From Escherichia phage vB_Eco_F25, in the sequence record OP870144.1: a stretch of DNA of 64,000 nt; one strand, 5' to 3'. The translations under genes were made by a program, and so were the position numbers. Below are positions 181-55,059 of this stretch, piece after piece; position 1 is the stretch's first letter, and every line of letters begins with the position of its first letter. Under the pieces are notes generated by a model. It ran no database searches and had not been told where the DNA came from. It worked only from the letters and a program-made list of their open reading frames with translations.

Positions 181-1746
181 ATGACTATCAAAACTAAAGC
201 TGAACTTTTGAACAAATGGAAGCCATTACTGGAAGGTGAAGGTTTACCGGAAATTGCTAATAGCAAACAAGCGATTATCGCTAAAATCTTTGAAAACCAG
301 GAAAAAGATTTCCAGACAGCTCCGGAATATAAAGACGAAAAAATTGCTCAGGCATTCGGTTCTTTCTTAACAGAAGCTGAAATCGGTGGTGACCACGGTT
401 ACAATGCCACCAACATCGCTGCAGGTCAGACTTCTGGCGCAGTAACTCAGATTGGCCCAGCTGTTATGGGTATGGTACGTCGTGCTATTCCTAACCTGAT
501 TGCTTTCGATATTTGCGGTGTTCAGCCGATGAACAGCCCGACTGGCCAGGTATTCGCGCTGCGCGCAGTATATGGTAAAGATCCAATCGCTTCCGGCGCT
601 AAAGAAGCATTCCACCCAATGTATGGTCCAGATGCAATGTTCTCTGGTCAGGGTGCTGCTAAGAAATTCGCTGCTTTGAAAGCAAGTGATACTCTTGAAG
701 TTGGAACTATTTACACCCACTTCTTCCAGGACACTGGTACTGTGTATCTGCAAGCTACAGAAGCTAAACAAATTGATTCAGGCGCATCTGACGCAGCTAA
801 ATTAGATGCTGAAATTAAGAAACAAATGGAAGCAGGTGTACTGGTAGAAATCGCTGAAGGTATGGCTACTTCTATCGCTGAACTCCAGGAAGGTTTTAAC
901 GGTTCTACCGATAACCCATGGAATGAAATGGGCTTCCGTATCGATAAGCAAGTTATCGAAGCTAAATCTCGTCAGCTGAAAGCTGCTTACTCTATTGAAT
1001 TAGCACAAGACCTCCGCGCTGTTCATGGTATGGATGCTGATGCTGAACTGTCTGGTATTCTGGCTACCGAAATTATGCTGGAAATCAACCGCGAAGTTGT
1101 TGATTGGATTAACTACTCCGCTCAGGTTGGTAAATCTGGTATGACCCTGACTCCGGGTTCTAAAGCTGGTGTATTCGACTTCCAGGACCCAATCGATATT
1201 CGTGGTGCTCGCTGGGCGGGTGAATCCTTTAAAGCTCTGTTGTTCCAGATTGACAAAGAAGCAGTTGAAATTGCTCGTCAAACCGGTCGTGGTGAAGGTA
1301 ACTTCATTATCGCTTCCCGTAACGTAGTTAACGTTCTGGCTTCAGTTGATACCGGCATTTCTTATGCTGCACAAGGTCTGGCTACCGGCTTTAACACTGA
1401 TACTACCAAGTCAGTATTTGCTGGTGTTCTGGGTGGTAAATACCGTGTATATATCGACCAGTATGCTAAACAGGATTATTTCACTGTAGGTTATAAAGGT
1501 CCGAACGAAATGGATGCTGGTATTTACTACGCTCCATATGTAGCTCTGACTCCACTGCGTGGTTCTGATCCGAAGAACTTCCAACCGGTAATGGGGTTCA
1601 AAACTCGTTACGGTATCGGTATCAACCCATTTGCAGAATCCGCTGCTCAGGCTCCGGCTTCTCGCATTCAGAGTGGTATGCCTTCTATCCTGAACAGCCT
1701 TGGTAAGAACGCTTACTTCCGCCGTGTATATGTTAAAGGTATCTAA
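181..1746 (+). CDS. 23: Major capsid protein gp23
   Basis: 521-aa ORF whose sequence (MTIKTKAELLNKWKPLLEGEGLPEIANSKQAII…) I recognise as T4 gp23; length matches; followed by terminator hairpin. Confidence 0.97.
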   Translation: MTIKTKAELLNKWKPLLEGEGLPEIANSKQAIIAKIFENQEKDFQTAPEYKDEKIAQAFGSFLTEAEIGGDHGYNATNIAAGQTSGAVTQIGPAVMGMVRRAIPNLIAFDICGVQPMNSPTGQVFALRAVYGKDPIASGAKEAFHPMYGPDAMFSGQGAAKKFAALKASDTLEVGTIYTHFFQDTGTVYLQATEAKQIDSGASDAAKLDAEIKKQMEAGVLVEIAEGMATSIAELQEGFNGSTDNPWNEMGFRIDKQVIEAKSRQLKAAYSIELAQDLRAVHGMDADAELSGILATEIMLEINREVVDWINYSAQVGKSGMTLTPGSKAGVFDFQDPIDIRGARWAGESFKALLFQIDKEAVEIARQTGRGEGNFIIASRNVVNVLASVDTGISYAAQGLATGFNTDTTKSVFAGVLGGKYRVYIDQYAKQDYFTVGYKGPNEMDAGIYYAPYVALTPLRGSDPKNFQPVMGFKTRYGIGINPFAESAAQAPASRIQSGMPSILNSLGKNAYFRRVYVKGI

Positions 1747-24886: not shown

Positions 24887-24915
24887 AACTTTGTGCAATC
24901 TTTGGAAAATAAAAA

Positions 24916-24935
24916 AGGACTCCCGAAGGAGTCCT
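24916..24935 (-). terminator. Stem-loop downstream of the small basic protein ORF
   Basis: Hairpin AGGACTCC-CGAA-GGAGTCCT. Confidence 0.45.
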
Positions 24936-24939
24936 CAAC

Positions 24940-25158
24940 TTATGCTTTCTGCTTACCAAAACGAGAAGCATCATCTCGAAGAACCGCACGTGCTCGGCGC
25001 ATGATCTTCTCAACAGTTTGATTGATACGAGAGTTCGACCCACGCTTGTAACCAGCGCGTTTAGAATCACCAACTTTCTTTTCAACTGCTTTCTTTGCTT
25101 TAGCTTGTTTTGCCATTATAAATTCTCTTTTAAATGAAAATGCAGGACTTATTGGCAT
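24940..25158 (-). CDS. Small highly basic protein (start ambiguous: 25158 or internal ATG at 25118)
   Basis: 72-aa ORF, Lys/Arg-rich (…MAKQAKAKKAVEKKVGDSKRAGYKRGSNSRINQTVEKIMRRARAVLRDDASRFGKQKA); followed by terminator-like hairpin at 24916-24935. Confidence 0.5.
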   Translation of the reverse strand: MPISPAFSFKREFIMAKQAKAKKAVEKKVGDSKRAGYKRGSNSRINQTVEKIMRRARAVLRDDASRFGKQKA

Positions 25159-25515
25159 TGCCTGCGCAAGCCCTCAAGGGGAACATAGGTTTTTGAATAT
25201 TTAACGACCAGGATAACCATAAACCTCGTCATCATACCTTATAGCTCTTATCTGTTGCACACCGTTAGCTTAAAGGTTCCGGGTTCGATTTCTCGAGGAT
25301 AAGATATATACTGATGGATATATAGGCCTTGAGGCGTACTCCCGATTGGCCATCACCTCGGGGTAGCATGCACTTGCCGCTATAAGAATAACATTCAAGA
25401 GGTACACCGTAAAACTGCCGGGGTCTTAAAACTATAATGATTCGCAAATCATTAATCAGACAGTTCGACGGCTCCTCGATTTTAGCTCACACTAAGGCAG
25501 TGAATCTCCAATAAA

Positions 25516-25764
25516 TTACTTCAGTGTTACCACAAAGTGACGAACTGCTTTTCGTGCAGCAGAAGCCAGAGGCTTAGCATATTTAAGTTCATCTTTTTCC
25601 TGAAGCTCAGCAGCTAATGCAGTTTGAGCAGGATTCAGATGTTTGAAATAACGCAGGATTTCAAGAGCTTCGGCTTCAACATCAATAGATGCGCCATAGT
25701 TTTCGTGACCATTATTCCATGCGTTTCGTTGCAGTTCAAGAGCGTGTTGTAATTGTTTAATCAT
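25516..25764 (-). CDS. rIII: rIII lysis-inhibition accessory protein
   Basis: 82-aa ORF (T4 rIII length); sequence MIKQLQHALELQRNAWNNGHENYGASIDVEAEALEILRYFKHL… recognised; TATAAATA late promoter upstream on - strand. Confidence 0.9.
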   Translation of the reverse strand: MIKQLQHALELQRNAWNNGHENYGASIDVEAEALEILRYFKHLNPAQTALAAELQEKDELKYAKPLASAARKAVRHFVVTLK

Positions 25765-25882
25765 TTAAAAATTCTCGTTAGAGATTAAAACTCGGTAGTC
25801 ACGTTCTTCTGAATTTCATCTTCTTTCGACAGATCTCTCAGTTGTAGACTACCACATAGAATTGAAACTCAATTCATATTAT

Positions 25883-25890
25883 TATTTATA
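25883..25890 (-). promoter_or_regulatory. Late promoter (TATAAATA) upstream of rIII
   Basis: Minus-strand TATAAATA between gene 31 stop and rIII start. Confidence 0.5.
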
Positions 25891-26226
25891 TCACTTATAA
25901 AGACACGGAATAGCTTTATAGTGACAGGTAACGAATTTTTGTTTAATTTCTTTTGGCTGCTTAAGACCCAGAGCTACAAAAGGATGCGGAACGTTTCGAA
26001 TTTGACCAACTGGCAGAGAAGTCAAATCACCAACTTCGCAGAAACCTTCAGGAACATCAGGACCAACAGAGTGAATTACACACAGTTCAGGAACTTCACC
26101 TTGAACACGTTTACCAATAATAAGTCCTGATTCTGTGACTTCTTCATCACCGGCTTGCGCAGGTTCAGAAACTAAAATAACATATTCACCGACAGCACGA
26201 ATTGGTAGCTGTTGTACTTCAGACAT
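25891..26226 (-). CDS. 31: Co-chaperonin gp31 (GroES analogue)
   Basis: 111-aa ORF (T4 gp31 length); recognised sequence; MotA-box middle promoter upstream. Confidence 0.92.
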
Positions 26227-28708: not shown

Positions 28709-29933
<1,225 letters not shown>

Positions 29934-38953: not shown

Positions 38954-39313
38954 TCAATACGGTTTAGCATCAAATTTTCTTTCAATTTCAGGCGTGAAAT
39001 ATAATTCTTTACCGCGTTTGGAAAAGCGACCAATAATATGATAATTATTCTCATCAAACGTAATATTGCCAATATCCATAGCTTTCAACCAAATATCGAT
39101 ATTTCTGTCAAGCTTTATATCAAAATTCCAATACGGAGAACTATTACCGAAAATACTGCAAGCGGATTCAGTGAAACAACTGCTATAAATCTTGTCTTTA
39201 GGAACTACTAATTGATAGACGCCTTTAATAAACTGAGGACCCTGCCATTTAGGTTGTTTCGCGTCTTTTTCTAATAGAATAGGGTAATAATTAAAGCTCA
39301 TATTTTCCGCCAC
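38954..39313 (-). CDS. Hypothetical protein (119 aa) inserted between frd and td
   Basis: Uninterrupted ORF filling a roughly 410-bp gap between frd stop and td start; co-oriented; no recognisable motif. Confidence 0.55.
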   Translation of the reverse strand: MAENMSFNYYPILLEKDAKQPKWQGPQFIKGVYQLVVPKDKIYSSCFTESACSIFGNSSPYWNFDIKLDRNIDIWLKAMDIGNITFDENNYHIIGRFSKRGKELYFTPEIERKFDAKPY

Positions 39314-39321
39314 GCGTTATT

Positions 39322-40148
<827 letters not shown>

Positions 40149-54285: not shown

Positions 54286-55059
54286 ATGGCAGTAGCAGGA
54301 CCGTGGGTAGGATCGTCTGCAGTAGTTAATACAGGACAAAATTGGATGGGTGGTGCCGCGCAGAGATTGAGAATGGGAATTCCGTTTTGGATGAGTAATA
54401 TGATAGGTCGATCTGTTGAAGTAATTCACACACTTGGAGCGGACCATAACTTCAATGGTCAATGGTTCCGAGATAGATGTTTTGAGGCAGGTAGTACACC
54501 TATAGTGTTTAATATCACTGGAGATTTAGTATCATATTCTAGAGACGTTCCTTTATTCTTCATGTACGGAGATACACCGAATGAATATGTTCAACTGAAT
54601 ATACATGGTGTAACGATGTATGGACGTGGCGGTAATGGCGGTAGCAATAGTCCTGGCTCAGCTGGAGGTCATTGTATTCAAAACGATATTGGTGGGAGAC
54701 TAAGAATCAATAATGGCGGAGCTATTGCAGGCGGTGGCGGCGGCGGTGGCGGCGGTAACTACGGTAGACTATCATTTGGTGGTGGTGGTGGTCGCCCATT
54801 CGGTGCTGGCGGGTCTTCCTCTCATATGAGTTCTGGTGCAACTGCTGGCTCCATTTCCGCTCCGGGTGCAGGATCTGCTGGTGAGGGGTCTCTTTGGGTA
54901 TATACAGGCGGGAATGGCGGTGAAGTTGGCTCAGCAGGAGGTAGATGTAATATTCATGGGAACGGTACAGAATATAACGGTGGTGCTGCTGGTTATGCCG
55001 TCATAGGGTCTACACCGACATGGCAAAACGTTGGAGCAATATATGGTCCAAGAGTATAA
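54286..55059 (+). CDS. 38: Receptor-recognising adhesin gp38 (T2-type, glycine-rich motifs)
   Basis: 257-aa protein from ATG 54286 (GGAGG RBS; the track ORF begins at a TTG codon); several poly-Gly motifs ([17 protein letters not shown]) separated by variable segments. Confidence 0.85.
54722..54790 (+). repeat. GGY codon tract encoding the poly-glycine motif of gp38
   Basis: ggcggtggcggcggcggtggcggcggtaac… simple-sequence tract within gene 38. Confidence 0.6.

Follow-up and report, generated by a model that had tools for sequence, protein, structure and literature searches.

Why does a phage genome in which one gene follows almost directly upon another leave several hundred nucleotides untranslated between rIII and 30.9, and what does this stretch encode? 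No lytic phages have been studied better than T4 and its relatives, and the window analyzed here (64,000 nt of Escherichia phage vB_Eco_F25, sequence record OP870144.1) is a Tequatrovirus (T4-like) segment in which genes 31, rIII, and 30.9 all lie on the minus strand, as they do in T4. The original prediction, made from the letters alone, placed an ORF-free gap at 25159-25515 and offered three readings of it: a small structured RNA, a long regulatory leader for the basic protein downstream, or the scar of a decayed or excised gene. The first of these is now strongly supported by covariation, by conservation above that of the flanking genes, and by the lack of a conserved ORF.

The rIII-30.9 gap and its coding capacity

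An ORF-poor segment does exist at this place, but the limits first given to it were too narrow. The untranslated stretch between rIII and 30.9 is 399 nt long (25117-25515) and carries a chain of modules on the minus strand (Table 1). This length follows from placing the start of 30.9 at ATG 25116, which opens with MAKQ, the start found in 30.9 homologues including the 58-aa T4 protein (NP_049823), and not at ATG 25158; the earlier boundary at 25159 stems from this upstream ATG, which lengthens the 30.9 ORF. The gap is as unusual for the tightly packed window as had been claimed. With a crude gene set the median intergenic distance is 6 bp, and only four gaps reach 200 bp or more, at least one of which is an artifact of a diverged gene. 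The rIII-30.9 gap is among the largest truly non-coding stretches of the window.

Within the gap, the ORFs at 25265-25447, 25270-25407, and 25149-25235 matched no PHROG family, and their sole Pfam match was a weak, sub-threshold one to BA14K for 25149-25235 (16.9 bits vs. a cut-off of 26). No reading frame is open throughout the homologues, most of which have stops in every frame, and none of the homologous phages examined has a gene at this position, so that no intact coding counterpart of a gene frameshifted in vB_Eco_F25 was found among them. In GenBank, the region is usually unannotated or overlaid with tiny "hypothetical proteins." The gene 30.9 product itself has no Pfam match and no solved relative.

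Table 1. Features of the rIII-30.9 region, in minus-strand order (window coordinates).
Feature	Position	Strand	Description
Gene 31	25891-26226	minus	
TATAAATA	25883-25890	minus	upstream of rIII; T4 late-promoter motif, putative here
Gene rIII	25516-25764	minus	PHROG 1457, E = 5e-44; upstream neighbor of the gap
Module D	25480-25509	minus	5-bp stem, bulged U, YWWA tetraloop, then GCUAAAA
Module E	25396-25478	minus	long branched hairpin, common to T4 and T6; folded
Core domain	25238-25386	minus	about 149 nt, 8 helices; from RNAalifold, model R1, pair counts, and single-sequence folds
Core helix P1	25379-25386 with 25238-25245	minus	8 bp, closing; window letters CUUAUAGC/GCUAUAAG
Core invariant strand	25367-25378	minus	GGCAAGUGCAUG
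Core helix 2	25376-25378 with 25325-25327	minus	GGC (start of GGCAAGUGCAUG) with GCC
Core helix Pa	25335-25366	minus	conserved bulged A
Core hairpin Pb	25305-25324	minus	
Core helix Pd	25298-25304 with 25246-25252	minus	
Core hairpin Pc	25284-25297	minus	GAAA cap
Core invariant junction	25253-25284	minus	ACCCGGAACC..GCUAACGGUGUGCAACA; includes helix 8
Module B	25185-25233	minus	H-type pseudoknot, conserved linker CGUUAAAUAUUCAAAA; also in T4
Module C1	25165-25184	minus	small CCC/GGG hairpin, then GCUUGCG
Module C2	25132-25165	minus	hairpin GCAGG..CCUGC, U-rich tail, just 5′ of the 30.9 ribosome-binding site
Gene 30.9	24940-25116	minus	58 aa, very basic; PHROG 1427, E = 2e-31, no function label
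Intrinsic terminator	24915-24936	minus	9-bp stem, UUCG loop, U tract, just after 30.9; first strong one downstream

A structured RNA domain in the center of the gap

A BLAST search with the gap against 50,697 phage records gave matches in about 1000 T4-like phages, although the whole gap is present in only about 180. For its central domain (the core), 23 homologous regions were found, 21 of them unique; 16 sequences were folded with RNAalifold, and a covariance model (R1; 148 positions, 43 pairs) was used for searches, with E-values that come from a shortened calibration. R1 scores 181 bits in the window, 120-184 bits in the copies, and 79-90 bits in a divergent set. In the final alignment (21 sequences, both loci), which is fitted to the model in a way that flatters the structure and represents roughly 6-8 independent lineages, 97.7% of the core cells are standard pairs, as opposed to 26-43% when the 3′ partners are moved by 1-3 columns; two-sided changes occur in 27 of the 43 pairs, and the observed covariation score was reached by none of 500 shuffles. 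The check across T4-like phages that had been proposed along with the prediction thus finds compensatory changes in six of the eight core helices (P1, Pa, the Pa tip helix, Pb, Pd, and Pc). Helix 8 (ACCCG/CGG-UG) shows one compensatory change, from C:G to U:A, in the divergent copies, and helix 2 (GGC/GCC) does not vary in any copy aligned. Most core helices are also recovered in minimum free energy (MFE) folds of the single window, Klebsiella, and phiEap-3 copies. The GC-rich inverted repeats first noticed in the gap are therefore real, being RNA helices with covariation support.

That the core RNA is read from the minus strand follows from its frequent G-U pairs (e.g., 13-14 UG at one pair of Pb and 7 GU within Pa), each of which would become an A-C mismatch if the complement were transcribed. 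At its tip, Pc carries GAAA (in a few copies GUAA or UAAA), which is legible as such on the minus strand only. This also settles the T-loop-like motif GGTTCGAT, which is present at 25282-25289 of the plus strand but simply complements the 3′ strand of Pc together with the adjoining start of the junction. As part of a hairpin and a junction read on the wrong strand, that is, antisense to the fold, it gives no hint of a tRNA. The failure to fold a tRNA from the gap was in turn confirmed by ARAGORN, which finds 0 genes in the whole window, and Rfam gives no tRNA or tmRNA match in the gap at E ≤ 10.

About 45 unpaired junction bases of the core are invariant. No difference occurs among the 21 sequences in GGCAAG-N-GCAUG, the bulged A of Pa, GGCCUAU, ACC-N-GGA-N-CC, or GCUAAC-N-GUGUGCAAC. 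Two palindromes, CAUG and GGCC, are also invariant. Between the two locus types, about half of the stem positions differ, always in a compensatory manner, and all three terminal loops differ in both sequence and length. As stems and loops vary while the junction strands stay identical, it must be the multi-helix junction, not the loops, that is under constraint. A search for further tertiary pairs by column covariation was abandoned, as the difference between the two locus types dominated the signal.

Distribution and conservation of the core

By BLAST, the core is present in 403 phage records, mainly from phages of Klebsiella (158), Escherichia (129), Shigella (27), Enterobacter (27), and Yersinia (18), with Salmonella, Citrobacter, Serratia, Raoultella, Erwinia, and others as further hosts. 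In every rIII-type locus inspected, across genera, it lies between rIII and 30.9, always upstream of 30.9 and at a distance of 100-150 nt. Between phage genera, the core is 94-100% identical, vs. 74-84% for rIII, 70-87% for 30.9, and 68-80% for gp31. For instance, a comparison with one Klebsiella phage gives 94% identity for the core and 75% for rIII. JS98-type (Dhakavirus-type) phages share 99-100% of the core and 93-96% of the whole gap with the window, while in these same phages rIII is 83-84%, 30.9 73-74%, and gp31 78-80% identical. A further comparison of core and genes points the same way. Core identity of 99-100% between Tequatrovirus and Dhakavirus may reflect recent recombination and not selection alone.

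T4 itself has only part of this region. Its rIII-30.9 gap (244 bp, unannotated) aligns with that of the window at the flanks only; the central ~150 nt are missing, and a search of the whole T4 genome with R1 is negative at E ≤ 10. Since T4 grows well despite lacking the core, any function of the core is dispensable in the laboratory. Wider scans with exact patterns, which divergent members escape, covered IMG/VR, one genome per bacterial species, and JGI/ENA metagenomes; only T4-like phage contigs were genuine. Three bacterial and four metagenomic pattern matches fail R1 and were set aside as chance.

A second locus near uvsY

The second locus came to light through a 37-nt BLAST match in Yersinia phage JC221, where a complete but divergent copy of the core (89.6 bits) lies downstream of uvsY and uvsY.-2. 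Related copies have the same position in Slopekvirus phiEap-3, Klebsiella phage CPRSA, Citrobacter phage Citrof4, Cronobacter phage GAP161, and two IMG/VR contigs. In this uvsY-type locus, the core follows uvsY/uvsY.-2 and converges on uvsW.1, and 30.9 is not there. P1 is preceded at a distance of a few nt by a conserved TAAATA, and in phiEap-3 this motif is extended to the full TATAAATA; about 150-200 nt past the RNA there is a GC-rich hairpin between A and T runs, which we read as a probable bidirectional terminator. At five of the seven uvsY-type loci, no conserved ORF follows the RNA; the other two (phiEap-3 and JC221) share a micro-ORF of 27-28 codons there. A small CCC/GGG hairpin accompanies the core at these loci as well, a D-type hairpin lies beside it in JC221, and several of them have a "stem + CGUUAA-A-rich" element.

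Flanking modules and Tequatrovirus alleles

The order on the minus strand is D, E, core, B, C1, C2, and then the ribosome-binding site of 30.9. Module D is also found beside the core at loci of Klebsiella and Enterobacter phages and of Yersinia JC221, and by eye its stem appears as CAC/GUG, CGC/GCG, or UGC/GCA. In the window it shares TTCACTGCC with the type I-F CRISPR repeat; D was nevertheless rejected as a CRISPR-repeat mimic, as it lacks the repeat's hairpin and the TTCACTGCC match is lost in other phages. Module E shows one compensatory change (GCCGU/ACGGU to GCCAU/AUGGU in L016), and it is partly deleted in PinkRuby and missing in UGKSEcP1.

In module B, the outer stem P1 occurs as GAC/GUC, GGC/GCC, GUG/CAC, GUU/AAC, or GUC/GAC, and the loop pairs as P2 with the segment 3′ of the conserved linker CGUUAAAUA..CAAAA. 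P2 changes in blocks (GGUU/AACC, UGUGAG/CUCACA, GUAGU/ACUAC, and UUAGUAGUU/AACUACUAA). The pairing was compared by script, the MAFFT alignment having set P2 out of register; loop and tail form on average 5.7 Watson-Crick pairs with their own partner and 4.2 across classes, a modest statistic, and the case for the predicted pseudoknot rests mainly on three distinct pair sets. Module C1 lies beside the core in nearly all loci, mostly 3′ of it and in L012 and EcS1 5′ of it. As C1 can sit on either side, a pairing of its CUUG with the CAAG at the 5′ end of the core was attractive; it was discarded because it is not kept in Citrof4 or JC221. C2 did not pass the terminator scan, its loop being longer than 8 nt. 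The order of modules varies between phages, B and D being 5′ of the core in Klebsiella phages. Upstream of rIII, the window has a hairpin that is homologous to the hairpin upstream of 30.9 in Klebsiella phages.

Six alleles were compared within Tequatrovirus. The window type has the full D-E-core-B-C chain. T4 is without the core, in T6 the core is replaced by an unrelated 44-nt insert, and in CT01 D is fused into mid-core, leaving a truncated core copy. PinkRuby has lost part of E and is without the core, and UGKSEcP1 has B and C only. Modules B and C are thus invariant in six of six alleles, and D, E, and the core are optional.

Transcription context

The transcription context was assessed by consensus scans only. 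The TATAAATA motif is the late promoter of T4, and its occurrence upstream of rIII is a possible source of late transcripts running through the gap. Inside the gap no sigma-70-type promoter was called, nor was any terminator-like site called between rIII and 30.9; a Klebsiella phage has the same arrangement, with the terminator after 30.9.

Comparison with known RNA classes

The search of Rfam that had been suggested for the gap yielded no relevant family. With 4227 families (Rfam 15), E ≤ 10, and permissive filters, neither locus type of the core gave a relevant match, and the only matches within the gap were to rli22 (16.9 bits vs. 80) and a snoRNA model (15.8 vs. 85), without meaningful overlap with the core. 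No description of the core was found by sequence string or keyword in the incompletely searchable literature. Judged by Rfam 15 and the literature that could be searched, the core is new at the level of the family, and it founds an RNA family absent from Rfam and carried by T4-like phages of Enterobacterales. In kind it is not new, for it belongs with the conserved structured phage non-coding RNAs that have no assigned function. Among these, T4 rnaC and rnaD, about 120-140 nt long, are likewise structured, have no assigned function, and come from non-coding DNA on the gene strand; unlike the core, they lie in the tRNA cluster and have a tRNA-like 3′ part. A closer kinship was rejected, as there is no sequence resemblance and R1 finds neither in the T4 genome. 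The pRNA of phi29 is another phage-encoded multi-helix RNA (about 120-170 nt) that does not regulate its neighboring gene, but it belongs to a different phage family. Rfam includes a pRNA family, and no Rfam family matches the core; to our knowledge, T4-type packaging needs no RNA.

Like riboswitch aptamers, the core has a conserved fold with a covarying P1 closure and stems, an invariant junction, and variable peripheral loops. Unlike them, it matches no Rfam family and has no coherent set of genes downstream, 30.9 following at one locus and either no conserved ORF or an unrelated micro-ORF at uvsY. No expression platform was recognized by eye or in MFE folds, and the modules between core and ribosome-binding site differ between phages. 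The small self-cleaving ribozymes of phages resemble the core in their patchy presence at non-coding sites, independence of context, and compact fold with a conserved center; the core is larger and confined to one phage lineage, and Rfam gives no match to hammerhead, twister, twister-sister, pistol, hatchet, HDV, glmS, or VS. The pattern of the core fits ligand- or protein-binding aptamers and ribozymes alike, and the two are not separable in silico. The idea that the RNA mimics, or is antisense to, E. coli 16S, 23S, and 5S rRNA, tRNA-Ile, or tRNA-Ala was dismissed, exact matches being no longer than 11 nt, as with shuffled sequences.

Module B resembles preQ1-I, which is likewise an H-type pseudoknot with an A-rich linker. 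A guanidine-III- or preQ1-like identity was not upheld: the architecture is similar, but Rfam gives no match and the "ACGR"-like bases are not conserved in Klebsiella phages. The T-even gene 32 mRNA has a pseudoknot operator in an untranslated region near an A/U-rich sequence (PMC3014915). B shares with it the H-type fold, the untranslated location in T-even RNA, and an A/U-rich neighbor, but differs in sequence and locus. RegB/S1 cleavage requires a single-stranded GGAGRAYARAA (PMC1702504), and the two GGAGs in the gap, followed by AUUCACU and CCGUCGA, do not agree with this consensus. PeSL cassettes are documented intergenic modules of T4-type phages (PMC2839356, PMC4122927), shuffled between loci and phages as the gap modules are. 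However, a PeSL consists of a promoter and one stem-loop, while the eight-helix core lacks a promoter consensus. The early-promoter consensus of PeSLs in the T4 group (TTTACW-N17-TAYWAT; PMC4122927) was not found in a promoter scan of the gap; the nearest sequence by eye (TTTACG-N17-TATTCT, 8/12) is not conserved in other genera.

Possible functions of the core

We favor, with a confidence slightly above even, the view that the core is an accessory, stand-alone structured non-coding RNA domain within mRNA that would act via its conserved junction. The gap would then be an untranslated part of the rIII/30.9 transcription unit, built of independently folding modules, and the core would be transcribed in read-through RNAs that start at the late motif ahead of rIII and at earlier promoters, if any; at the uvsY locus, it may be made from a late promoter of its own. 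As P1 closes the domain and the domain moves as a unit, the core would be expected to fold autonomously. Its active part is probably the multi-helix junction, since the junction alone is frozen, and this could form a pocket for a protein or small ligand or a catalytic center. The core would act neither via its variable hairpin loops nor by masking the ribosome-binding site of 30.9. Two observations count against a stand-alone role: the core always precedes 30.9 by 100-150 nt at the rIII locus, where it may act in cis, and a conserved micro-ORF follows two of the seven uvsY-type copies. That it might represent a new class, either a self-cleaving or otherwise catalytic ribozyme or a free-standing aptamer that binds a host protein or small signaling molecule as a sponge or decoy in counter-defense, is a doubtful extension of this view; if true, it would explain the gene-like accessory distribution, the frozen junction, and the independence of neighbors. 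In a search for a partner protein, the ORFs of the window that are missing from T4 amounted to three small ORFs and a T2-type gp38, none of which was informative.

Alternatively, the whole structured region could be the 5′ UTR of 30.9, in which a ligand or protein (e.g., gp30.9, RIII, or S1) sets translation or stability. The synteny of rIII, RNA, and 30.9 in every rIII-type locus agrees with such a leader, as do the invariance of B and C directly 5′ of the 30.9 ribosome-binding site, the extremely basic nature of gp30.9, and the binding of ribosomal protein S1 reported for RIII (PMC9409239). From this reported binding, S1 would also be a candidate partner of pseudoknot B, as a lead only. As an account of the core, however, we consider a leader unlikely, because uvsY-proximal copies occur without 30.9 (five of seven without any conserved ORF downstream), while T4, T6, PinkRuby, and UGKSEcP1 retain 30.9 together with B and C and do without the core. 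In Klebsiella phages, B lies upstream of the core and far from the ribosome-binding site; alternative pairing of the P1 3′ strand with this site was not seen; and no known riboswitch class matches. Of the leader as originally proposed, the part that may stand is pseudoknot B and hairpins C, which we infer to be better candidates than the core for the actual leader of 30.9. The modules might instead be passive, a site of processing or a barrier to decay by host RNases (RNase E, RNase III, 3′ exonucleases) that uncouples the half-lives of the rIII and 30.9 messages. Stable hairpins are abundant in T-even intergenic regions, 30.9 is followed by a terminator with a UUCG cap, the fold of the region is more stable than that of shuffled sequences (z = -2.3), and modules are shuffled between intergenic regions, such as the rIII-upstream hairpin shared with Klebsiella phages. 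A barrier requires stems, though, and not some 45 invariant unpaired bases; here the stems drift and the junction is frozen, and the core is better conserved than the genes it would serve, which makes a passive role quite improbable.

A selfish, DNA-level recombination cassette of the PeSL type, spreading among co-infecting T4-like phages and conserved through gene flow, would account for the patchy presence, the mosaic alleles, the shuffled module order, and a near-100% identity across genera whose genes are ~75-84% identical, and it has precedents in T4-type phages (PMC2839356, PMC4122927). Strand-specific G-U pairs and covariation in many helices across the deeply diverged type 1, type 2, PS2, and EcS1 copies nevertheless demand selection on an RNA fold, and the core is without the early promoter, and has more than the simple stem-loop, of a PeSL; this explanation is very unlikely. 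Barely credible is a decayed or excised protein gene, or a degenerate tRNA. The small "hypothetical proteins" of many GenBank records and the GGTTCGAT motif might suggest either, but no frame is open across homologues, PHROG gives no match and Pfam a single sub-threshold one, no homologous phage examined has a gene here, the stem changes are compensatory and not synonymous, and the tRNA searches were negative, with GGTTCGAT antisense to the fold. The preferred reading of the core as a stand-alone domain, and not primarily a leader of 30.9, agrees with its occurrence without 30.9 and that of 30.9 without it.

The core is a complex, covariation-supported fold in about 400 sequenced phages, many of which are therapeutic isolates against E. 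coli, Shigella, Klebsiella, and Enterobacter. It has probably been overlooked because the model phage T4 is without it and because annotation pipelines overlay the region with spurious small ORFs. Since near-identical phages differ naturally in whether they have the core (the window type, T4, T6, CT01, and UGKSEcP1), its function is directly testable through allele swaps. T4's own 244-bp rIII-30.9 gap, for its part, holds a conserved pseudoknot that has gone unannotated.

A second structured cassette and the modules of the T4 gap

The intergenic region between gene 31 and rIII of the window holds a hairpin module, GGUAGUCUACAACUGAGAGAUCUGUCGAAAGAAGAUGAAAUUCAGAAGAACGUGACUACC, whose homologue lies directly 5' of 30.9 in the Klebsiella phages, Citrobacter phage Moon and Serratia phage PS2. 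The hairpin has three nested stems, all of which covary between the window and these 30.9-upstream homologues: GGUAGU/ACUACC vs. GGGAGC/GCUCCC, CUGA/UCAG vs. CCGA/UCGG, and AUCU/AGAU vs. AACU/AGUU. The GGUAGUCUACAACUGAGAGAUCUGUCGAAAGAAGAUGAAAUUCAGAAGAACGUGACUACC hairpin is a second structured 5'-UTR cassette, behind which the gene differs between phages.

In T4, the rIII-30.9 gap carries no annotated feature, and contains hairpin modules D and E, module B (a covarying H-type pseudoknot) and hairpin module C. In Shigella phage CT01, hairpin D is joined to the 3' half of the core, the structured RNA domain of the gap, at ...CCUUAGU|AUAUAUC..., a fusion that abolishes core helices P1, Pa, and Pb. 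This allele is a natural truncation and a ready-made loss-of-function variant.

Coordinates of features in the window, T4, and related phages
Feature	Position	Strand	Remarks
T4 rIII-30.9 gap	NC_000866 130541-130784 (= L026 2042-2285; L002 753-996)		244 bp
30.9 ORF, long form	24940-25158		72 aa from ATG 25158
Module D part with UUCACUGCC	25488-25509	-
Truncated core allele	L053 473-625		Shigella phage CT01
ORF without T4 counterpart	29613-29933	-	tblastn
ORF without T4 counterpart	38954-39301	-	tblastn
ORF without T4 counterpart	39903-40148	-	tblastn
ORF without T4 counterpart	54286-55059	+	tblastn
Micro-ORF	L048 ~1394-1480		phiEap-3
Micro-ORF	L006 ~1343-1426	-	JC221
GGUAGUCUACAACUGAGAGAUCUGUCGAAAGAAGAUGAAAUUCAGAAGAACGUGACUACC hairpin module	25790-25860	-	gene 31 to rIII intergenic region

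Rejected likenesses

The top Rfam match near the region was Atu_C8 (24901-24984, - strand; 31 bits, E = 4e-4, against a gathering score of 50); it was rejected, as the match is a UUCG-capped intrinsic terminator behind 30.9 that shares only a generic terminator shape. UUCACUGCC, together with the GCUAAAA tail of module D, has a likeness to the type I-F CRISPR repeat. Module D lacks the hairpin of that repeat, and the likeness is lost in other phages; we judge it to be chance.

Neighboring reading frames

Several GenBank records annotate the long form of 30.9. Homologues favor the 58-aa form, with its start at 25116. Some records label 30.9 or rIII "1,4-alpha-glucan branching enzyme," which is evidently a mis-annotation.

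Downstream of the uvsY-type copy of the core RNA, phiEap-3 and JC221 share a conserved micro-ORF, unannotated in the phiEap-3 record, with the common C-terminal end ...RR(T/N)LLRRP(M/I)EFTFG(G/E)VID(N/K)IPS(I/S)KG(M/Q)*; it is absent behind this copy in Citrof4, GAP161, and CPRSA. Only four ORFs of the window had no tblastn match in T4. Three are small proteins with no assigned function; the remaining one encodes a gp38 adhesin rich in glycine, taken to be of the T2 type in place of T4's gp38.
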